64,000 nt of DNA from Fistulifera solaris (GCA_030295235.1 AP026124.1:992001-1056000); one strand, 5' to 3'; positions 1 to 15,274 are shown, numbered from the stretch's first letter. Numbers and translations are program-made. The notes: generated from the letters alone by a model not told the origin.

Positions 1-3000
1 ATTCGCATTGACAAATGGGTCGTGGTTACCACCCTCAGAGCCTACAACAACCACGGCAGATACGAATTCTGAAAAAGCTTCTAGTGATGACGGCGAAGTC
101 GATGTCTCCGTTAGGGTAACGGAATCTCTCAGTGGCGCTGATGTCCCCGTGACCGCGTTTAACAGGAGAGTTCTTCATACACAGACGTCGGGGGCTTCAT
201 TTTCGATTTCCAGGCGGGAAAACGAGACAATTCTTTTTCCAAAGAGGTTGTCGCTGCATCATCTGTATCTTTCCTTGAAATACTGCAGTTGCTTACACTT
301 CAAATACATACCTTGGAAGAGTGCGCCTCGCTCCACCGCCTGCTTTCAAATCTGGACGATGAATCTCGACTATTGTCATCGGGATTGTCAATAAACTCAT
401 ACCTGAGTCGCCTAATACATGTGCCGACTAGCCTCGCAGATGTCTGGGCACTTCGTCCACACCCGCATGGACCGCTGCAATCGAAAGGAAGTGGAGAGAA
501 TCGAGGATCCATTCTTGGTCTTTTAATTGCCCTTTACGAGCATAGGTCAGATCACGGTGCTATCCTAGACTCGCAAGGAGGAGATCAAGTCGATGAAGGG
601 CATGGGGGTGCCCGTGCACTTGCTTCCAGTGGCCTCAAATGGATCTTGAGGTTTGTTAATGCCTTAGTTGACGGTGCACCAGCTGTCAGCGCAGCAATAA
701 GATCGGCGACCAACGGACTTCGAGAGATCAAAACGCAGGATTTCAGTGCTTTGTCGTGGACAATAGATGAAGAAGTGCGAAATATCATCCGAAGAATGTT
801 GGCAAACCTGACTGACTTATGGCCAATGGAACGCAGCAAATCGGAGTCATCAGAAAAGGCAACACCCAAAGTATCCGAAGCTGGTAAGGCAGCCCAGAAG
901 CGCCAGTTGGAGAAAATGAGGAAAATGCAAGCAAAGTTCGCTGCAACGATACAAGGTTTAGATGACGAGAAACAAATCAACGAAGCAGATACTGGAAGCG
1001 ACCAGTGTATTATCTGCCGCTGTGATGATGTTGATGGCGAGAACAACGGCCCATTAGGATTTTTAGGTCACGTCCAGCGCTCGCGGGTCCTCCAAATGCG
1101 TTTTACGATCGAAGCCGATAAGAGGAAGGGCGTCCCGCTTGATCTATCTCAGAGTTATCTCGTTGTCGGTCACAAAGGATGTCAGGTAAGTCGTCGTTTT
1201 GCTTTGCGCAATATGGCACTTTCATTTTCGCTAAGAATATCTTAAAGCTAAGAGAAACGGAAGCTATGGATTCTAGGCCTCTGACATGTTTGCCAAAAGG
1301 GAGTATTGTCACAATTCTCTCCCATAAAGTGTCCACAGAGTATGGGGTTCTATCTAGAAGAGTTTTCGTTCGTCACAGACCGGAAAACAACGCTGACGGA
1401 ACGTTAGCTGAGGGATGGGCTAGCATTCAATCCTCTCAAGGTTATGTAATTTTGAGCCCTCTGATCTCAATGTGCTTCACTAATTCGCGTTGGGGCAGTA
1501 CGCGCCCAGTTATCAAGCAATGTGGACACGCAGCACATCTAAGGTGCGTCGAGACGCACACTCTGTCTCTGCACCACCGAGCGGCGAGTGAGCAGACGTA
1601 TGATGGGCGATTTGCTGCAAATATTGACGACGGTGAATTTTTATGTCCGCTTTGCAAACAGTTGTGTAATATTCTGATACCAAGAGATAAAATGACTGAA
1701 GGAGACTCAATATTTATGGATGTAGAGGAGGTTTGTCCGTCCGGTAAATGTGAACTTTCAGCAGTCCGAATCATTTTGAGGAAAGGTTGCTCGGTTCACC
1801 TGACAAGCGCGGAAAGGGAATCTATGGCAAGCAAAGCTCTGGATCAATTCGGTTCTAAATTATATAGTGCCATGAACGTTCCGTGGGACCGAACAACCCA
1901 ATCTCAAAGAATGAATCAGCAAGAATGGCTTCGGGCTATTCAAATGTGGGATTTTGAAGACGTATCTAATGTTGATGGCAGTGTAAAGAATACGCAAGCA
2001 TTGTTGCGACAACAACTAATCTCATGGTCGGCTGTTGGGCACAACGCGTCTACCCTCGAGGCTAGTACCCGGGCGCTGGAAGAAGTTCTTCCGTTTGGAA
2101 CTTTTTCAGTGACTTCTGATCCATGGCAGGGGTTCAGCACAAAATCAAGAGATTCTCATCCCCTGCTACTGGAATTGCGACGCATGCTGAACGCATCGTC
2201 GGGTTTGCTACAACTTCTTTGCCGACGTGTTGCCGATCAATTAACTACAACAGACAACACGGGGCAGACCACAGTTATTGGAGAATGTCTCGCTAGTATT
2301 CTCGAGGGCCGATGCTGGGTGCAAGATGTTTTGTCCAATAAAGAAATCTGTGGAACCGATGCTGGATTATGGAGTTGTTTGTACAGCTTGATATCAGCCG
2401 TCCCTTGCCACGTAGCTCGAGATGGCACCATTGCGCAACGATGCGAAGCAAGAGCATCAGCTGTCGCGATGTGGACGATGAAGGGTGTAGGAAGATCGAA
2501 CGATGAAAGAAGAGAGGTCCCTACTCCTTTGCCATTCAGCAGCTACCTAATGAGCACACTTGCTCAACTGGCTGGGGAACAATGGACCCGTGTTTAGATC
2601 CCACTCAATCTTTTTCCCGGCCCTTTCGTCCCGCAATCGCCAGTGTCTTTCCCTATCTCCCTCTTCTTTCATGGGATCTTAACACTTACACTGCTTCCAT
2701 ATTTTCCGCCTTCCTGGGAAACCACATGAAAATGCTGCCAACAGCACAGCAAATACTATTTGTTTGCAAGACTCTCATGCTTGGACGTGTGGTGCAGGCC
2801 ATCGTCACCCCTTGTGGTTTTGACCTTCCTGATGAGACTGATTTGGACGAAGAAAGTTGCTGGGATGAAACTGAAGCGAAAAAGCAAGGGAATGCGTTGA
2901 GTAAACTATTAGCTCATTGCCGATCCGTTATCGACAGCAAGTCGATGTCTCACGGACAAGAGCTTCTGGGCGACGCCTCTTACTATCAAGACAATGTCGT

Positions 3001-4378
3001 TTTGGCTGGCCTTGGACGTGCTATTTTGCCGTTCTCCCGTTCACTTATTCTTATGGTGAGAGCTTTCGTTTCGACTGTTCATGAAAGACAGCAACGTGGT
3101 GGGCATCAAGTTGAGAGGAACAAGTTCAATGAAGTTTTGGAAAAAATTCTTTGCAATGACGATCTTATGACAGTGGAAGACGGTTTTTGTCTTATCAAAG
3201 CTATGGATGGGCCACTGCCTAGTCAAATGATTGACCCCGCCGACGAGTGGTGGGAATTAATCAATAAGTGGCTGGTAGCGGCTCTTGGTCTTGAATGTCA
3301 TCACGGCTCTCGGGGTAGCACGATTGGAAGGTCTGTTGACGATGTCCCGTCTTTGAATGCTAAACATATTGACCCGCAACACGAAAGCATTGCGTCTAAT
3401 CAAAGGGAACAGAACGTTTTTGAAGCTCCAGCCTACTTTAGAAACGAGCCTATGGATCACGGTGAAAGCGACGCTGAATCAATTGCAGAACCTGACCACG
3501 GTAACTTTTTCGGCCTCAGAACAGATTTTCATAACGATAGTAACGACGACGAAGAAGAAGATGTCATGATGCAAGATGTGGAGGAATTTCCGGATGTATC
3601 CGGTATGGTTCCTACTTTCACGTTTTTCAATCCGGCTTTGAACCGGAATACTGACGGAGAGGAGTCGTCTGAAGAATACAGTAGTTCTGAAAACGAGGGT
3701 CTGGATGGCGACCGTGCGTTTGCCCATGTCTCTAAGTCCCCTGTCATATATTATCAACCCAGTTTACTAGGTCGCGAAAAGGTTGGCCCAGGCAAGTCCG
3801 GGGAAGCCTTTGAGTCGCGCCGCGCGAGCTGCGTCATGTCGGATTTGAGCCACCTCAGCTTAGTGCATCTCAAGGGAGTCCCCACTTTTAGCTTGGTCCG
3901 TCTGCCGAAGTCATTCGTGGAACTTTACAACATGGTGAACATAGTGAAAGGAACTGGAGAAGATTCTCCTAATCTCGACGATAATGAAGACTTGGCTAAT
4001 TCCGAAACAGCGATTTGTCTGCTTACTGGAGCCGTCATGCGATCAGGATCCACTCGAAGAACATTTGCTCGTGCAACAAGGCAGCCCGGTTCATGCACGA
4101 TTCATGCCAGGAAAACTGGATCAGGAATCGGAATATTTTTCCTCGTTCAGAAGTGCACCGTTCTTTTGATGCACAACAATAAATCGGCATATTCTCCTAG
4201 TTTGTACGTAGATGTCCACGGAGAAGAAGACCCTGGATTGAAACGTGGCCGACCACTTTTTCTGCAAGAAGATCGATACAGGGCTTTGGAGCGGCTATGG
4301 CGTCAGCAAGGTATCCCAGGGGAAGTTGCCCAGATCCGATCAACATCCGACCGTGTCATTCGCGACAACTGGTATTAA
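1..4378 (+). CDS. UBR1/PRT6-type N-end rule E3 ubiquitin ligase, 3' part (5' end outside window)
   Basis: ORFs 8-394, 289-1245, 1179-2597 and 2582-4378 chain together. Split RING CIICRC...CGHAAHLRC...EFLCPLCKQLCN; UBR C-terminal motifs GIGIFFLVQ and SLYVDVHGEEDPGLKRGRPLFL. GT-AG intron 1186-1247 joins the frames; apparent 1-nt frameshifts near 250-290 and 2540-2590. Confidence 0.9.
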
Positions 4379-4450
4379 TAGGCAATTAAAAAAACTAATA
4401 CGTCGAAAGTTAAAACTGTCAGTAGGCATGATTCAAAAATTAACCAAGAA

Positions 4451-6021
4451 TCACTTAGCGTCGTCGACCGTAAATTCAGCACGGCCCCAGGATTGATCTC
4501 GATGGCAATATAGTTCACTGATGACCATCCCCGTGGCAAAGTCGTCAACAAATTGTCGTTTATCTACCTGAGCAATGTGGAGGCGCGTTGACTCACGCGT
4601 CGAGGCAATTAGTTTGCCCGCTGCAAGATCATCGCAGAAAGTTTCTGATCGGATGGCCCAGACCTCCAAAGCATCCACGTCAAATATTGCATCAACGTCT
4701 CGTTCCTTTTTCAAAAGTGATCCTGATTCAAATGTCGTGTCCATAGTTCCAGCGTAACAGCCTTCTAAGGACGGATGCAAATGCAGTCGAGGGATGTCGG
4801 CTGCAATTCCACCAATTGCCAAGCCTTCCAGAGGTCCCTGGCCCCGGCGATAAGAAACAGGGGTATTCAAAAATTGATGAAAACATCTGCTAGACGTATA
4901 AACAGTTTGTTTCAGTGGGCTGTCAGATGTCGCATCATCTCTCATCATATTGTAGCAGGTCCATGAGGGCTGAATGCGGAGAAGAAATGTCGCTTTCACA
5001 GCCATTGGGAATGAAGCCTCATCGCTGCTGGTAGAGTACCATTTAGGACCGTTCTTCCAAGGCAATGCTGTGTAGAAGCCAAGCACTTCATTTTCTGTAG
5101 TTCGAATAAGTACCAAGGTAGGACCCATGAATGATACCAAAGCATGGGAAAAGCTGGAAAAAGCGAGTCCGTCCTCGTCACTGTTGTACAGTCTGCGATC
5201 TTTCTGAAACCAAGGGCCGCCCAAACCCATCAAAGACAGATGGAAAGGAACAGGGTCCAGTGGATGCTTCCAAAAACCTGACAAGTCATTCAAATAATCA
5301 CTTTGTCGTTCACAACCAGTAATCCAGTTGAAAAGGGATGACTTATACCGTGGATTGGAGAACGAATCGTTTTGTAGATTTGTGCCGACGAGTGTCGCGC
5401 CCAGAAGCGCATAATGGAAAACAGTAGAGAGCAGGTGTACAGCATGCTTTGCTTGTCCCTCCAACCACACTTTGATTTGTATCGGTGACAAGTAGCAGTC
5501 CCTTTCATCCTTCAATGATGACAAAGTGGACAAGGATTCAGCCATCGTTTCGCGTATTCTAGTTTCGTTCCTTCCTCTCGACACCAGCGACCGAAAGTGT
5601 AGCAAGTAAGCAGCTTTCGCGAGTCGAAGAATGAAATCAGCTATTCGAGAAGGCGAACAGTCGTCACCGAACGCTTGGTAAAGTCGCGCAGCCAAAGCTT
5701 GTGCACTCCCTCGACCCGTGAGTGTGATGGCCGTTTCCATGAATTTGGCTCTGGCGTGCAATTCTGGTTGCTCATGTTCGAAAATACCGACAACGGCGGC
5801 ATTCTTATACTCCTGTTGAAATATTTGTGATAGTTCGGGCAAAATATCTGTCTCCACGGACACTACAATATCCGTAAACTCGTCTTCAACCAGACAGCTC
5901 GATAAACGCGGAGTTGATCGCTCATCACAGTGTTCGTAGACGGCAAAATTCCAAGCAGGCGATCCAGTTCATGATCACGAAGAGGATATCGATCAAGAAG
6001 TGATTCGCGAAGAGGATTCAT
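4451..6021 (-). CDS. TLDc-domain protein
   Basis: ORF 4451-5863 has TLDc motifs (GPTLVLIRTTENEVLGFY..PW, TFLLRIQP, GLAIGG, FDVDALEVW). Probable start MNPLRESLL at 6021 with a frameshift near 5870; possible 5'UTR intron 6052-6136. The 5' end is uncertain. Confidence 0.75.
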
Positions 6022-6213
6022 AAAAGAAGCTCCAGATGATGATAATATGAACTGTGAATGGAGTAGCATGAAGTATACGATGAAAGATGCCATGTTTCGA
6101 ATTTCTAACCTCACCAAGTACGTAGATTGTACGTACCACTCGTAGGGAAATTTATCGGCCGAGTGATCACCCAGATATTCAAGATTTTCACTTTGTTTGT
6201 CGCCGTTGTCTCG

Positions 6214-6482
6214 CTTTGCCTTCGTTTTTGGCCACGGGCGAAGAGGAAAAACCAAAATATTGAAATATTGCAGTTCTTCCATATAAGCAATCGTTTATTT
6301 CTAAAGAATGATATTATTCATCGGGATTTCGAAATGGGTGTGGTGTCTTTTTCTTGTGCAATGTTGGAGTCAACACGTCCGGTCGTCAGCCGTTCGGAAA
6401 ACGGCGTTACCCATCCCGTCCGGTATCGCTGGATCAAAGAAGTCACCACCATTCAAGAATCACGAATTGTGGGACTCGCATC
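6214..6482 (+). repeat. Left copy of ~269-bp host duplication flanking the retrotransposon (contains a truncated carboxypeptidase 5' end, ATG 6308)
   Basis: ctttgccttcg...gggactcgcatc recurs at 13010-13275 with only single-base indel differences. Confidence 0.95.
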
Positions 6483-6498
6483 GATGGGTCTGATAAAC

Positions 6499-6685
6499 AC
6501 AGTTAATCCTATTCACGGCAGCAATAGAATGAAATAGAGGCATGCAATAGATGAATTACGTTACACCTTCTAATCATGGAGATGACCACCATGTGTTGCA
6601 TGTTGCGACCGCGCAACGCGAGGTACGACGGCTCATCCGTGAACGGCCGTACATCCGTCAACCGTAGCATGACCGGATTCGCTGT
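6499..6685 (-). repeat. Extra LTR copy A (187 bp)
   Basis: acagttaatcc...ggattcgctgt; one substitution versus copy B; followed in element sense by the same 15 nt (6484-6498) that follow the 5' LTR. Confidence 0.9.
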
Positions 6686-6872
6686 ACAGTTAATCCTATT
6701 CACGGCAGCAATAGAATGAAATAGAGGCATGCAATAGATGAATTACGTTACACCTTCTAATCATGGAGATGACCACCATGTGTTGCATGTTGCGACCGCT
6801 CAACGCGAGGTACGACGGCTCATCCGTGAACGGCCGTACATCCGTCAACCGTAGCATGACCGGATTCGCTGT
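6686..6872 (-). repeat. 3' LTR (copy B, 187 bp)
   Basis: Head-to-tail with copy A at the junction ctgt|acag; lies ~170 bp downstream of the pol stop. Confidence 0.9.
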
Positions 6873-7041
6873 GTCCCCGGGAGCATGTCGCGAACTGGTT
6901 CTCACATGATCAGACTGCAGAGGCCCCTTCATTTTCAAATGGGGGCGGGTTGTTTTAACCCATGACATGTAAAATATGTAAAATAAATGAAACTCTCTCA
7001 CTGTCGACACCATCGGGCGACAATCAGCACAAGAAATAACA

Positions 7042-10000
7042 TCACCACAACACCCGAGAGCTGAGATCACGAAGACGCGGACCTCCCAACAACTTGGTGA
7101 GAATGTCACTCAAATTGCCTCGCCATCTTCCTTCGTCAATCGAATAATACCAGCAGCAATCGCTTCACGAACTTTGTGATACGCCACCGCATTAGCTTTC
7201 TTTTTCAAAGGACTCTCAGGGTGTGTCGTATTCTTGACCACGGAATCATTATCGCAGAAAACAGAAGTTGGCCCTTCAATCGGTACTCCCATCATCCCGG
7301 GAGTTTATAACGCAAACCTTCAATCATCTCGACGGCAATTTTCAAAGCTACTATCTCACTTCCAAATGTAGAAGTCTCAACAGTTGTCTGGCGCTTTGAG
7401 AACCAAAGAATAGGAGCCCTGTTTACAAAAAACAAGCACGCCACTATGTGAACGTCGAGTATCCCTACAACCGGCATGATCCGCATCGCAGAAACATGAA
7501 ATGAGCACAGGCTCACCACGCTCCTCCCGGTTTGTCTGGTGGAATCACTTCAGCTGCATCCGGATAAAACTCGCCTCCAGTCCCTTCTTATGAACCGTCT
7601 GTCATCAATGAAAGGCCTGGTATCATCAAAAACCAAAGTAGAACGGTCGTGAGATTTCAAGTAAGCAAATATGTGAAACACTTGATCAAGATGACCTTCT
7701 CTAGCTTGCGCTAGGTACCTCGACAACATCGAGACCGGTACAATGATATCCAAGCGTCCCAACTCGCATAACCATCGTAACACGCCAATCAACCCCTGGA
7801 AATAATTCTGACGCCGATCGTCCAATTCTGGTGAAACATCCAATTCCGGACGGTATCCTGCACTAAATGGAGTCGCCCGCTTTCTTTGGTAGATCTAAAT
7901 GAACTTTGTTTAGCTCAGTCTCGACCTCGCTGATAGCCTTTTTGGTATACTTTTCTGACGAGAGTGCCCAACGGTCCTTTGTTGGGTCTTCAGCATCATC
8001 AATATGCCATTTTTTAACGTCGGGCTCCAAGATATAGTTCCGGCTCTTCCGCTTTCCGTCTTTAAACTGAAAGATTTGTGCAATTTCGAACATCTTATCA
8101 GGATCGATACTTTGTCCTACAAGATCATCCACGACGCCAACAAATACTCGTATTACTTGGTGCCATCCGGCTTCAGGGCTGGCCGCATCCAGATGTCAGG
8201 ATCAGCCTTACACGGTATAGCCAAGTTCCCGTAACTTAGATGCGAGGGTGTGAACGGAATCGAAATCCGGCTGACGGAAGTCCATACAAAGCACGAACAA
8301 TCTTAGCCGGGCGACCCTGGTTCGAACCAAATTCCAACCCTGTCCTATACCAGTATTTCTCTTTGATCGGCCGTTAGATAAGCTGCTCTGAATATCGGCA
8401 GACAACACTTTCAAGTTATTCAAAGCAGCAAGCAGAAAGAACAGTCTTACGGAATCTCTCGACACGACAGATGAAAACGTATTCTCCTTCGGTTCATCGA
8501 CTTTGTGACCGTCTGCCACAAACCGTGCCTTGCGGACTAAGGTGATCTTGACGTCGAATATCATGTGACACTTGATCTCCTTATGACCCACAGGAATCAA
8601 ATCCTCGGCATTGAATTCGAAGGCAATCGGAAACATTCTTCATCTCTTTCTCAATCGCTTTCCGCCAGTAATCCGTACCGGTATCGCCGATCTATCTGTA
8701 AGGCTTCCGCCACAGTCTTTGGCAATCGAACTCCATACTTGTGAGTTCTCTTCCAGTATCTGTTCTTGGTCTTTGCAATAATCCGATCCTTTTTCCCGAA
8801 TCACGGGGAACCCACCAGGCGAACGCCGGTTCGTCGTCGATCTTGGCTCCAACTGCATAAAGCGCAACTTGTACTGGATGGGACTCCTTGATATCCGACA
8901 AACGGACCCAATCTGAGCTTCCATCTTTCCATTCGCACAGCAGTTCCCAGCCCCTGGTGGTAATCTTCCGACTAGGATTGCTGCCAGTTCCGTCAGGCAG
9001 AAAACCGTTCTCCTTGGATACTGCATGACCATTTTTCCGATGATCAACAATCTCCGATAATACTGCAAACATCCGACCCTCATCATCAATCTGAGCTTAA
9101 AGATTCTCAGCAATAATGTTAGCACTGTACGAGTCAACCGTCCCATCCGGAAACTCAATCTCGTGAATATCGCGGTGTCTAGGATTGGATTCTCATTCGC
9201 TGAACCTATCGGGTATACCGTCATCGTTTTTAACCCTCCGCTTGACGACACCATGCCTCAGCTCACCACCGACTAGGAGTTGAATCTCTGAGTTAATGTA
9301 GTGATCGTGACGCTTCCGGAGTATAGTCATCCAAATCTGGACGAGGTTCCTCTGGCTCTGGCTGTTCATCCGCATCCACGTCAAATAGATCAGCAGGCAT
9401 TGAAACGTCTGGTAGCAACTCTTCGTCGAGTTCCGCTGGTGTCCCCGATCTTTCGTTCAATGATAGCGGTCAGTTCATCGACTCTAGCCTTCATTGCATC
9501 GGTTCCGAAATCCTGGGCATCCACCGCCCACACCGTGGATCTCACAATCGGTTGACAAGACCTTGGGAGAATCCAGTAACAATCACCAGATCCGTATTCT
9601 CCAGCTGGCCCTAACCAACGACCTAGATGATGCTCGCCATCTTCGTCCAGATACCACACCCAGTCATACCACTCATGCTGAGCATAGGTACTGATATCGG
9701 GTGTGTAGCCCTTAACGTGCTCAAAAGGTGTCCGCCCTTGCAATGATGGAATGCCCAAAGCTGTAAAACATCGAATGCGCTGACCAAGTCGCCAAGGTAC
9801 GGCCAGAGCCGCCGTGGCTAACGCTTTGTCGTCCACTTCCGAATCCCACGTTTGATTTCTCGCACTTCAGATTCAGCTCGGTTCTGCCACCAGGAGAATG
9901 GCTGCGTGAAGGTATGATTGATGTGATAACGAGACACCACCTTCTCCCACTCAGTGTTCCCGGTTCCACTAGCTCCTTGTTCCCTGGAGTTGTCAGTAAT

Positions 10001-11192
10001 CAGCTTCTCCGGTATCCCATCCTCCTGGACCAGATTCACCAATCCATGACTTGCAAGACGCTTTGACTTCATCGGCCAGAACCGACCGTAACCTTTTCCG
10101 TTGGTAGTCAACTGAGCACAAGTTTCTCCACCCAAGCCTTTATCCTTGAAGAAAACACTATCTGAATACCATCTTCCTCTTAGCGTTGGATGCCTGAGGT
10201 ACGGTTGTGATTTCATTCGTCGTTGAACTGGATGTACCACTTTCCGAATTCCTTTCTGTGTTGTGGTTCTGATGGTATTAGAGGCTATCGTTGCCGATTC
10301 CCCATCGCTTACCCAACACAACTGGCGACAATGCCGGCTTTGGTGCTTCCTTCCTAAACGCCGCAACCTGTCTCGTGTCAGACCAGTCCCCGGAATCTTG
10401 ATACCGCTCATGACAGAAACCACAGATGTCTGAAAATAGTAGACCTTTTGCCAATCCGCAACAATGAAGTCCCCGTTCTTGGAGTCCACGATCCACCATG
10501 TCCCCCGGGCGGAATGCAAAGGGTCAAAGTCATACCGGGTTGTCAGCAATCACCAGTGCCGATATCTTACGACGAACAGGGTATGTTGGGTAAAGAAAGT
10601 CCACATCTTTAGCCGCCTGCTCAGCTCTTGAAAACGTGAGGATGAAGGATCCCACTCGTCCTCCCGACGTCACATAGATACGAGATGCATTACGTAACTC
10701 GGTGTCAGTTGGTAGGCCGAAGTGAAGCCTGAAATAACACCGTCCATAGAAAGAGGAATGACAAGTTCCGGGTTGCTCAGGAGGGCGCAAAATGATAGAG
10801 TGTCGTGATTCGGGAACATACTGAGTCGGACTGTCTTCCACGACATGACCAAAGTCACGGATCTGGTTCGGAGATAACAGACTAGAAGCTAACCGGTCCC
10901 CAAAATACAACGCCTGTCCAAAAATCAAAAGAATAACTTCGCCAGTTTTGGGATTGTCATAAGCGGTAGCACATGTGGCAATCGGAATGTCGGACAACGG
11001 TTGATACTCAGGGCTGTACGGAGAGACTTGTACCGTTTCCCCACTAGCTTCAAGTAAAACCATATTCCGTCCAGCAACGACCGTATCCGCATGGCTATCG
11101 AGCTCACATCGATCAAAAGAGCCAGCATCGTCCAGGACATCCATCCTATAGACGTGCCGTTCAACACAATGAATGTGTCGGAGCGACCCTAG
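7042..11192 (-). CDS. pol: Copia Pol polyprotein (protease, integrase, chromo-like domain, RT, RNase H), broken by many 1-nt frameshifts
   Basis: PR LDSHADT. IN YSD..ITDN..QNRAESE. RT CHMIFDVK..RKARFVADGH, LSADIQ, xVDD near 8125-8135. RNase H FCDADHAG, VETSTFGSE, FCDNDSV, NLSDILTK..RVLW* (stop 7042-7044). Confidence 0.92.
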
Positions 11193-12590
11193 TCAGAGAC
11201 TGGGGTTACCCTTGCTCTTCTTTGCCTTGTGTGCCGCACGACCAAACTGTTCTCCCGGCATTTTTCATTGGAACTTCTTCATCCGGTGGCACTACTGCTA
11301 TCATCGGCTTTAGCTGCTGCTGCTTTAGCAGCTGCGGCCGCTTTCTTCTGTTGCTTCTTGTTTTTCTTCTTTGCAGCCCGTGCGGTTTTCACGTCTGCCT
11401 TCTGACTTTCCGTCAAAGCGTGGAAAGCGCCGGCTGCCAGTTACCGCCTTTGACCTCAACGGACAGCTTCTTCCATTCAGCTGCTGAAGACGTCTTTGCA
11501 TCACCACCTGCGGTCTGCATTCCCGCGACCTGACGACCTTTTCTTCTTACTCTGAGAACTAGACAAGCGATTGTTCGAGTTCACAGTGGAAAAATACTTC
11601 TGGGTTGCATCAAGTCTTCCATCAGCTCGTTGTTCCCGTAGACATGCAGCTTTGCTTGAGACAAGACATCACACGTGATCCCGCTCAAGAAATCTTGCAC
11701 CTTTTTCTCGACTCAGGAACAGGTTCGCCACAGTAAGAAAGTTCGTTGTGAGCCTGCAAGTGCGCAGTGATGTAGTGATCGAAGGTGTAGTCACGCTGAG
11801 GTCCTGCGACACTGGGCGTCCGCAATGTCATTGTAAGCTTTGGTCTTACGGTTCAATCTTCCATTTGCAGTGTCAGTCTGTCCTTTTAAGGTAAGGATAG
11901 CCCTTCTTCCATCCTTTTGGGTATCAAACTGCTTGATGTAAGTCCATCCGGGCCCATCTTGCACCAAAGCCTTGAATTCATTCCAAACTCGCAAGTTATC
12001 AGCTTGATAATGATCCCCAGAAAGTACGGTACAATGGTGAAAGCGTGCATCAAAAGTCGGATATGCTGCATTGAGTTCTGCTGGTGTGACTTCTTCCTTA
12101 TCACGGAAAACATAGTCCAACGGAATTTCTGCTGCACCTCGAATGCTACCAAAGTAAGTTTGCACAGCTTCCCAAAACTTGACCCACTCAGACATCTTTT
12201 TTCAACTTCGGGCGGCTTCTGCACATCTTGATCCTTCATGGACGCTGCATATGCCTTCAATTCCGCCACACGACGGCCGAAGTGTTGCTCAATTCTGCAA
12301 CTGTGAGGTGTGCAGGATTCGGATTTTCAACACCCATCCGAAGTCTGTAGAATCGCCCCACTTTCTCACAATCTTCAAGTCTTCAACAGTCTTAGGTGTT
12401 GGGTGCACTCTCACATTTGCCGGCCTGTTTGGATGAGGATACTTCAAAATTGAAGAAATTGTCTGTGCAATTGTGTCCTCCTCCATTGCCAACAAATCTG
12501 CTATGTTCGCAATGTTATTCCATGCAAGTTCAGCCCTGGTTGCGCGTTAATACCCAATCGAGTCTCCAAGAGGTTGTTCCATGAAGCCAT
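11193..12590 (-). CDS. gag: Copia Gag (frameshifted in this sequence)
   Basis: ATG at 12590 (MASWNNLLETRLG). Fragments WVKFWEAVQTYFGSIRGAAEIPLDYVFR, YQADNLRVWNEFK, DGRRAILTLK; basic C-terminus QFGRAAHKAKKSKGNPSL* ending at TGA 11193-11195. Confidence 0.8.
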
Positions 12591-12809
12591 GTTGAGAGAC
12601 CACTTCTTCTTTTAAAACAGGACAAAGAGAAATTGCAAGAGATTGAGCGTTTTCGCTCGTGATGTACTGTGACTCGAAGAGTAGTAGTACAGATTGAACG
12701 TAGAGTAAAATTGCTTGCAAAAACGAAAATGTCTCCGCAGCAGCAATTGTCAACTTGTCTTGTGCTGTTGTGGTTCAAATCGAACTCCTTCGACCTGAAT
12801 CAAAGCTGT

Positions 12810-12824
12810 ATGGGTCTGATAAAC
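12810..12824 (-). promoter_or_regulatory. Primer binding site GTTTATCAGACCCAT (half-tRNA type)
   Basis: Directly follows the 5' LTR. Its complement A-TGGGT-CT-GAT-AA-AC has tRNA anticodon-arm geometry. Confidence 0.7.
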
Positions 12825-13009
12825 ACAGTTAATCCTATTCACGGCAGCAATAGAATGAAATAGAGGCATGCAATAGATGAATTACGTTACACCTTCTAAT
12901 CATGGAGATGACCACCATGTGTTGCATGTTGCGACCGCTAACGCGAGGTACGACGGCTCATCCGTAACGGCCGTACATCCGTCAACCGTAGCATGACCGG
13001 ATTCGCTGT
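12825..13009 (-). repeat. 5' LTR (copy C, 185 bp as read)
   Basis: Matches copy B apart from two 1-nt deletions. Confidence 0.9.
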
Positions 13010-13275
13010 CTTTGCCTTCGTTTTTGGCCACGGCGAAAGAGGAAAAACCAAAATATTGAAATATTGCAGTTCTTCCATATAAGCAATCGTTTATTTCTAA
13101 AGAATGATATTATTCATCGGGATTTCGAAATGGGTGTGGTGTCTTTTTCTTGTGCAATGTTGGAGTCAACACGTCCGGTCGTCGCCGTTCGGAAAACGGC
13201 GTTACCCATCCGTCCGGTATCGCTGGATCAAAGAAGTCACCACCATTCAAGAATACGAATTGTGGGACTCGCATC
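13010..13275 (+). repeat. Right copy of the host duplication (continues into the full carboxypeptidase gene)
   Basis: Direct repeat of 6214-6482. Confidence 0.95.
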
Positions 13276-15274
13276 AAATCAAAGAGGAGTTGGAACGATG
13301 GGCCTCCCATTATCCGCAATTTGTTCGGCTCACAACGTCACAAGACGCGTACGATATTCGCCGACGGCCGGTCGAGCGGAGGATTGCCCCTTTGACGAAG
13401 GTGACGGCTGTAAAAATTACATTCTGACTGTACAAGACTTTGAGGCGTATCCGGAAGGGTCGGAGGCCTCGAGGCATCTTCCCGAAGTCCTATGGAGTGG
13501 AGAATTACACGGGGACGAACGAGTTGGCCCGACCGCGGTGCTCGAGGCCACATCACTGCTTTTATCGGCAGCTGCATGTGAGGCACTGCCGCGTCGAAAT
13601 CTCATGCCAGATGGCGATGATGAAGAAATACAAAAGGCGTGGGAACGGGAACAGCAGTTAGCGGACACTTGTCGAACGGAATTACGACAATTTGGTATTG
13701 AGGATCAACATCGGAAATGGCTTGCCAGACTGCTTTCGACGCGACGATTGGTCGTTGTACCGACAGCAAATGCGCTAGGTTACTATAGAAGCCAACGAAC
13801 AGAAAATGGAGTGGATGCGAATCGTGATTTTCCCTTTGATTTGACGGATCCGAAACAATGTATGACGACCATCGCTGGACGAACTTTGAATGAAGTCTTT
13901 CGAGAACACTTGTTTCAGCTATCGCTTACGTTTCACGGCGGTACAGAAGTCGTGAGCTATGAATGGGGAGCACCGTCCTATGAAGGCTTCGCGTCACCGG
14001 ATGATATTGCACAGTCTGCTATTGGAGGTGCCTATAGCCGGTTTGCGGGTGGTTGGTCTACTACGAAACCGTACATTTACGGAAATATGAACGAACTCGT
14101 TTATCCTGTCAGAGGCGGTATGGAAGACTGGGCGTATGCAGGATCGTGGGATCCCGATCGAGTCATCGCCTGCGAGCCGGATTCGTTTGGTGGCTATCCG
14201 AAGGAAAAGACTATCTATAACAATTCAACTCTTCGGGTATTCAACATGTTGATCGAAACGAGTCACAAGAAAATTCCACATAAATCGACTCTGGGCACTT
14301 CTATGGATGTCATGCGCAGTGACACTGAGGCGAATGGTCATGTTTCTCGTAACATTCGACTAGCTTTGCTTTCTCTCGAGCTCGTTCAGCCATATCTTTC
14401 GGTATCATCCATTAACGGATATAGCTTCACAGACGACATCGTTCCACAGTACCCGCAAGAAGATTTGTATTCATGTAAGGTAACAAAAGCGCTGAATGTT
14501 TCGTCGGCCTTGACCGAGCTTACAATCCAATGGACTGTTGGAGGAGCCTTGCACATTGATGACACGCAGTTGTGGTATGGAAAATGGGATGACGCGTTGA
14601 TGAACGAACTGAGCTGTTGGTCGCAGCCCTCGGCCGAAATGTTGAAAGATGTGTTGACGAAGGCTTCGCCTATCGGGACCACGAGCAGCAAAGGTGGTTT
14701 TGCGTCAGGATCCCCCGTCGGAGGCGCCGGTGCTACATTTTCAGCTCTCATTGACACTTCATCGTTTGAAGTTGGAGATGAAATTATTGTCATCGCGCTG
14801 GCTGAGGTCGACAAGGGATGGAAAGATCAGCCTAAAAACACTAAACCTCAGGTACCACCGCAATCACACATTGTTAATGCAAGAACAAATCCTGAATGGT
14901 ATCACGAGGTTGATGGAAGCGTCATCCAAGGCAGAATACAATGGTTTTCGACGCCCGCGACCTTACATGTTGTGAGCTCTTCCAGTTCAGAAAGCGTTGT
15001 GGAAACTCAAAGCCGATATAAGCCTTCGAATGTTTCTCCGACATCAAGCTCGGCAGAGACGCACGAAAGGAAAGGAGAAGCATTTGTCAAAATCACAACA
15101 CTGTTAACTGTTCTAGCATTTTTTGGTGCGATATTGCTCATGGGACAAATAATACTTAAAAGACGATTCAGGATTGCAAAGCGCAACAGAGTTCTTCAAT
15201 ACGTGGATGGAGAATCAGTCGAGTTACCCGGAATATCGCAGAAAAATGGATATGCTGATCAAGAAATTTTATAA
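13104..15274 (+). CDS. M14 zinc carboxypeptidase, signal peptide and C-terminal transmembrane helix
   Basis: HGDE (HxxE), DANRDF, LTFHGG, GGMEDWAY; hydrophobic N-terminus MILFIGISKWVWCLFLVQCWS; TM LLTVLAFFGAILLMGQIIL; frameshift near 13360-13380. Confidence 0.88.

Follow-up and report, generated by a model that had tools for sequence, protein, structure and literature searches.

Aberrant proviruses of HIV carry one normal end, while the other end is joined to extra viral DNA or to host DNA, and the accompanying duplications of host sequence range from hundreds to thousands of bp; in the available text of the same report, microhomology at the aberrant joints is usual, not constant (PMC5041404). 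Natural insertions of HERV-K (HML-2) with duplications of 61-450 bp have also been described, and for one of them, with 250 bp, the empty allele has been sequenced (Kahyo et al. 2017, PMC5488345). For Tf1, about 50% of the cDNA ends keep a PBS tail and the reverse transcriptase (RT) adds untemplated bases (Li et al. 2022, PMC11042837). The CoDi3.x and CoDi4.1-4.3 elements have 4-bp target site duplications (TSDs) in 20 of the 22 rows of Table S11 of PMC8147415, the remaining two being given as 'not found', and TG/CA ends are missing in CoDi3.2, 4.2 and 4.3 (PMC2806351). Priming by a half-tRNA is found in Drosophila copia and yeast Ty5, and for the fungal elements Copia-18_PHord and Helenus it involves the anticodon loop of tRNA-Ile (PMC10886601); a general precedent for half-tRNA priming is provided by PMC4139406 and bioRxiv 2025.04.25.647736. 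These descriptions follow the accessible portions of the reports. In a literature search that left most subscription papers outside its scope, no copia insertion was found that combines a long duplication with an appended LTR-PBS piece.

The window analysed here is a stretch of 64,000 nucleotides from Fistulifera solaris, in which positions 6214-6482 and 13010-13275 form a single direct repeat with 97.8% identity over 269 columns (BLAST E 4e-126). A copia-type element that reads on the minus strand is located between the two repeat copies, both of which abut it. In the sense of the element, the order is host copy, 5' LTR (13009-12825), PBS (12824-12811), internal region, G-rich tract, 3' LTR (6872-6686), second LTR (6685-6499), second PBS (6498-6485), bases 6484 and 6483, and the other host copy. 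The features of the locus are the following:

4451..6021, minus strand: divergent host gene with a TLDc domain, likely ATG at 6021, whole native intergenic region kept
6214..6482, plus strand: host duplication, left copy; assembled length 269 bp, true length 266 bp
6483..6483, no strand: extra base at the aberrant junction, neither host nor element sequence at that place
6484..6498, minus strand: second copy of the 14-nt PBS (6485-6498) and base 6484, which equals the base after the element's own PBS
6499..6685, minus strand: extra whole LTR, head-to-tail with the 3' LTR, zero bases between them
6686..6872, minus strand: 3' LTR, about 185-187 bp, ends ACAG...CTGT
6873..6880, minus strand: short G-rich tract, placed by position as a putative polypurine tract (PPT)
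6881..12810, minus strand: internal region with gag, protease, integrase, RT and RNase H in copia order
12811..12824, minus strand: PBS, follows the 5' LTR directly and is complementary to tRNA-Ile(AAT) in its anticodon arm
12825..13009, minus strand: 5' LTR, with an exact joint between its first base and the duplicated host sequence; normal junction, likely made by integrase
13010..13275, plus strand: host duplication, right copy; 266 bp, the same sequence as an X1 contig, includes the ATG (13104) of the next gene
13104..15274, plus strand: host gene with an M14 zinc-carboxypeptidase domain, coding start kept, native upstream DNA reduced to 94 bp

Two sister copies of the element, on C4 and C3, fix the LTR ends and show that the right junction (13009|13010) falls at the exact terminus of the LTR and that, on the left, an LTR-PBS piece is appended to an intact 3' LTR, not to a damaged one. 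For the same reason a truncated right LTR, with the true LTR running into 6873-6907, was rejected. The earlier note had described this exact LTR end and had also reported a direct host duplication abutting the element. The duplication stands (97.8% identity, and the contig breaks discussed below), its length of about 269 bp does not, and the true value is 266 bp. The extra base 6483 was likewise correctly seen, while what had been called an abnormal left end is a whole extra LTR (6499-6685) with its PBS, which had been missed. Of the two element ends, the exact one marks the start of the duplicated stretch, and the aberrant one is found on the opposite side of that stretch.

In the search of its own genome, the repeat was found as the pair in the window and as the C1 homoeolog, at about 80% identity; the remaining matches are short and belong to an unrelated repeat located outside the duplication. 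A piece of roughly 60 bp (6119-6180), about 35 bp to the left of the insertion site, matches at least 31 other places at 79-89% identity, several of them about 427 bp apart, as in a dispersed or tandem repeat. The aberrant host junction (6479-6486) is the centre of a perfect 8-bp palindrome, of the kind present at 226 of the 64,000 window positions (0.35%), and a snap-back fill-in at this palindrome is possible, if unproven. The insertion is recent, since next to no differences separate the two host copies from each other or the three LTRs among themselves.

Two direct LTRs flank gag-pol, and the order protease-integrase-RT-RNase H with a copia-type RT is that of Ty1/copia elements. One fragment of the window element matches RVT_2 with an E value of 1.8e-5, which is below the curated cut-off, and the full-length homologs P0002 and P0006, which are colinear with the window element, pass it. 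The protease, integrase and RNase H, which we take to be such from their motifs, had no match in Pfam, and four of the five element fragments had no Pfam match of any kind. The genome holds at least two sister copies, C4 with 97% identity and C3 with 90-93% and internally deleted. The C3 copy is without the stretch from the PBS to window position 11509, which includes most of gag, and has an insertion of roughly 350 bp near the start of its 3' LTR (L010:7012-7361). The sister copies set the LTR ends as AC...GT (window 12825-13009 and 6686-6872; L009:2277-8614; L010 about 2138-7575). Ends of the type TG...CA and a 5-bp TSD are usual, not universal, in Ty1/copia, and here the ends are AC...GT and the TSD in the sister copies is 4 bp. 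The terminal inverted repeat continues for two bases beyond the LTR ends, with AC next to the PPT and GT next to the PBS, and the same two-base extension is present outside the LTRs of a CA...TG family, a hint of 2-nt end processing in both families. A protein search with the element returned no named CoDi sequence.

The 14-nt PBS is adjacent to the LTR and complementary to the anticodon arm of tRNA-Ile(AAT), at gene positions 28-41, which are the standard positions 27-40 (the anticodon is listed at 35). Five copies of this tRNA gene were found. Thirteen of the 14 bases pair with the gene, and the 14th is a C opposite the wobble base A34, as it is in all 11 non-tRNA matches to the PBS. A C in this place is expected if A34 is inosine. 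The site is predicted to bind a half-tRNA-Ile primer. The appended piece starts at the first base of the LTR and ends 1 nt past the PBS 14-mer, followed by the one extra base. Plus-strand strong-stop DNA is made of the LTR and the copied PBS, and the piece has this shape. The three LTRs of the window, the extra one included, share three substitutions relative to the C4 LTRs, and by this measure the extra LTR appears to be of the lineage of the window element, not of C4. Base 6484 is the element's own next base, which fits copying from element DNA. Templating of the junction bases by the tRNA beyond the PBS is not supported, as the tRNA would give CGCTC and the junction reads TC and then host sequence. 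Inspection of the LTR|LTR and PBS|host joints revealed no microhomology at either; this speaks in favour of blunt end-joining and weighs against strict priming.

The locus has an exact element end on one side, and extra element DNA with a long duplication on the other, as is found in one-ended integration, and differs from that pattern in the microhomology. We consider it probable that the 266-bp duplication goes back to a single aberrant event, with only one end attached by integrase and the other by host repair. The earlier interpretation is partly supported: its one-ended or repair-mediated reading agrees with the geometry and with the retroviral precedent in the accessible text of PMC5041404. 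According to this proposal, integrase would have joined the 5'-LTR end to the host at 6214/13010, while the 3'-LTR end would never have been joined to the host, because there is no TSD remnant at the LTR|LTR joint. The free end would then have gained the second LTR and PBS, most likely from strong-stop DNA (LTR, 14-nt PBS and 1-2 untemplated bases) by blunt end-joining, or, less likely, by copying from the element or from a 2-LTR circle. Repair synthesis would finally have joined this tail to the host at a site 266 bp downstream from where integrase had cut, copying the stretch between and leaving a direct repeat. That integrase made the normal end is suggested by its identity with the junctions of the sister copies; an exact LTR end could also arise by ligation of a blunt cDNA end in the absence of integrase. 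The homoeolog has one copy of the stretch and no element of the window family, and its intergenic region has diverged. The homoeologous loci, at 80-90% identity, point to two sub-genomes.

A more specific reading of the aberrant end is put forward only tentatively. It may be a fossil of plus-strand strong-stop DNA that became attached by ligation to the LTR end left unjoined by integrase, so that a by-product of reverse transcription rescued a half-finished integration and templated the 266-bp duplication. Its end point would then record where synthesis stopped in vivo on the inosine-bearing half-tRNA-Ile primer, in a copia lineage with AC...GT ends.

The absence of microhomology, the single extra base at the left junction and the blunt LTR|LTR joint would also be compatible with a capture in which integrase had no part, where fill-in at a host break whose nicks lay 266 bp apart was followed by end-joining to a cDNA multimer made of a full cDNA and an LTR-PBS piece. 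Indeed, 3'-LTR cDNA intermediates of Ty1 with extra bases found only in cDNA are captured at breaks, in the available text of PMC11372161. However, such a capture requires an untrimmed LTR end and an unusually long stagger, and the right junction is exact to the base, like the integrase junctions of the sister copies. In the case of Tf1, moreover, events of this type target PBS/PPT homology or yield tandems in which one LTR is shared, in the accessible part of PMC11042837, and neither is present here. We therefore regard the capture as unlikely.

A 2-LTR circle may instead have been the donor, with one of its strands opened where the two LTRs meet and then passed on to the host, and with repair synthesis afterwards copying the circle from the PBS across the joint. 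The head-to-tail joint without host bases is that of a 2-LTR circle, and the extra LTR shares its lineage with the element. Nonetheless, this explanation does not account for the end located 1 nt past the PBS, which is expected for strong-stop DNA and would be a matter of chance for a template switch, and it is considered improbable.

A normal insertion and an empty allele could have been merged in the assembly into a false duplication, an alternative that had been raised before and that the contig breaks of X1 make very unlikely. Contigs from four runs were compared with positions 5400-14400, the X1 figures coming from the 8 X1 contigs listed out of 92. X1 had been guessed to be RNA, yet it covers all 30 bins, including element and intergenic DNA, and appears to behave as DNA. 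It is perhaps the assembly's own sample or strain, and as such it checks the assembly and is no independent biological replicate. Among the contigs listed, one of 266 nt corresponds to 13010-13275 with 0 differences and a depth of 30.2, one of 279 nt starts at 5965 with a depth of 15.1, that of the adjoining flank, and one on the gag side ends at 12839. These breaks were compared with unitigs built from model haplotypes at an assumed k=31, with a control break (13307-13711) that all models reproduce; the test at 12839 was made without the C4 copy, since the contigs collapse the positions at which it departs from the window.

For the structure as assembled, the predicted values are 279, 266 and 12839, which are the X1 breaks to the base. 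A normal insertion at the start of the repeat together with an empty allele predicts 253, 313 and 12854, and one at the end of the repeat, again with an empty allele, 516, 516 and 12853, while a model with no insertion predicts 562. The three contig ends thus fit the model with real junctions and none of these three models with a normal TSD or no insertion. Omission of base 6483 predicts 267, and the 266-nt contig ends at 13275, not 13276, an end point that requires base 6483 to be real. The X1 breaks match only models with both host junctions and the extra base, which are supported in this way, and the true length of the duplication is 266 bp, not 269. An empty allele of the sub-genome that carries the insertion was not encountered; a model in which one coexists predicts the same breaks as the assembled structure. 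The depth of the duplicated piece (30.2) is twice the 15.1 of the flank, which suggests that most molecules carry both copies of the duplication. The homoeolog, about 80-90% identical, shares neither of the end 30-mers of the duplication, which also speaks against an artefact.

On the side of an artefact is the poor polishing of the element and of the left copy, which show up as 59 indel places in 9 kb against the X1 contigs, and the fact that the two left LTRs share the same errors. Neither the LTR|LTR joint nor the whole locus is spanned by any X1 contig among those listed. An artefact limited to the tandem LTR is fairly unlikely. A model with a single 3' LTR predicts the same listed breaks as the tandem. 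In favour of the tandem, both boundaries of its unit coincide with LTR termini, and the ratio of LTR to gag depth (80.1/28.3 = 2.8) is closer to the 2.5 expected for five LTRs than to the 2.0 for four, a comparison weakened by the depths of 17-22 in other single-copy contigs, with which four copies are compatible. The 6685|6686 joint is unique in the genome at the level of the assembly: of the four matches to its 14-nt pattern, the other three (two homoeologous loci and one unrelated locus) were rejected as chance, their surroundings having no match to the element.

The left and right copies differ only by single-base gaps, at four sites with five gap events, all of which adjoin CG. Of the 57 short gaps that separate the window element from the C4 copy, 49 have a CG within 3 nt, relative to a background of 33%. 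These CG-linked gaps are likely systematic errors of (long-read) sequencing, perhaps tied to CG methylation. The many single-base frameshifts of the internal region, as assembled, are likewise likely to be mostly sequencing errors and say little about the real state of the element, since the CG-linked gaps look like such errors. Frameshift counts in transposons of the Fistulifera solaris assembly are unreliable. The use of these gaps as proof that the left copy is methylated was dropped, given that the host-gene frameshift near 13383 also adjoins CG.

A later rearrangement, whether a crossover of elements 266 bp apart, an insertion into an existing tandem or the re-entry of a small PBS-LTR-host circle, is highly improbable. 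Recombinant CoDi elements without TSD have been described in a diatom genome (PMC2806351, accessible text), but a crossover or an insertion into a tandem predicts an exact LTR end at the left host junction, and after re-entry of a circle one would expect the remnant of a 4-bp TSD where the two LTRs meet; both are absent.

The search with the core of the PBS gave 16 matches, namely the five tRNA-Ile(AAT) genes, the two sites in the window, the two sister copies and seven other elements with the same half-tRNA-Ile PBS:

L039-L045: seven other elements with the same half-tRNA-Ile PBS, on C5, C6, C15, C22, C25, C33 and C37

TSDs of 4 bp flank both sister copies (C4 and C3), five of the seven relatives (L040, L041, L042, L043 and L044) and a solo LTR in L044. 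The measurement of flanking duplications at other genomic copies, which the earlier note had called for, thus gave ordinary short TSDs and no long one, and the normal TSD of the lineage is 4 bp, not the 5 bp that the note had taken as the norm. The ends are CA...TG in four of the seven relatives, a fifth of that family being truncated at its 5' side, and TG...CA in one. In the truncated one (L045:652-7077), the 5' LTR keeps the last 95 of about 238 bp and no TSD is present, so that it is possibly a second aberrant insertion or the product of a later deletion. L039 has no second LTR within the 10 kb examined, and its PBS matches five further tRNA bases. Self-BLAST of the DNA examined around L039 and L045 revealed no long flanking repeat. 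Since the sister copies, five relatives and the solo LTR have 4-bp TSDs, the long duplication is a single event, and a family-wide mechanism, for which the window locus alone speaks, is refuted and has practically no probability left.

The exact junction lies between the TLDc-domain and M14 carboxypeptidase-domain genes. From the carboxypeptidase gene, the left copy retains a truncated 5' fragment, made up of its first 172 coding bases, along with 94 bp of upstream sequence. Because of the duplication, the TLDc gene keeps its whole upstream region and the carboxypeptidase gene an intact start. Contigs of X2, X3 and X4, which are RNA by guess only, start at 13093, 13135 and 13159 and cross 13275 into the carboxypeptidase gene; they reach no further left than the 12925-13225 bin, which carries no evidence on expression. 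A carboxypeptidase transcript from the right copy fits these contigs and is unproven. Near 13383 this gene has a frameshift relative to the homoeolog, where the X2-X4 contigs show two gaps relative to the window, and the frameshift is probably an assembly error.

The locus is a single event of a known kind and not a new system, given that long TSDs (HERV-K), priming at the tRNA-Ile anticodon loop and capture of Ty1 cDNA at breaks are all published, as far as the accessible texts go; what is informative is the junction. As a natural case it is clean, and it shows in an LTR retrotransposon a repair route that has been examined mainly in retroviruses that were mutant or treated with drugs. Should the extra LTR-PBS piece be strong-stop DNA, a replication intermediate can be read from the junction. 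The locus further shows that a promoter region, along with the start of a gene, can become duplicated in this way. Finders that demand TG...CA ends and a TSD of 4-6 bp would miss this insertion.

In comparison with known systems, the element resembles CoDi3 and CoDi4 in its 4-bp TSDs, in the short LTRs that some of them have and in the lack of TG...CA ends of several, a likeness that concerns TSD, LTR length and termini alone; the accessible part of Table S11 (PMC8147415) lists neither an AC...GT motif nor a long duplication. It resembles the half-tRNA-primed elements described so far in a PBS that pairs with the anticodon arm, that of tRNA-Ile(AAT) included, and is unlike them, in the available texts, in having an apparently diatom host and a C in the PBS opposite the wobble base. 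As in Tf1, cDNA 3' ends with a copied PBS and untemplated bases would have taken part in the insertion, whereas the Tf1 events, in the portion of the report available, target PBS/PPT homology or yield tandems in which one LTR is shared, and the window locus has two abutting LTRs and no homology to the target. HERV-K shares natural insertions of LTR elements with long flanking duplications, but it is a retrovirus found mostly as solo LTRs, with no extra LTR-PBS piece in the accessible text. Unlike the aberrant proviruses of HIV-1 and ASLV (Varadarajan et al. 2016, PMC5041404, available text), this is a natural insertion of an LTR retrotransposon, with no drug or engineered end, its appended piece is exactly one LTR with its PBS, and its repaired joints are free of microhomology. 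With those proviruses it shares a normal LTR junction at one end, extra element DNA, and a long direct duplication of the host.
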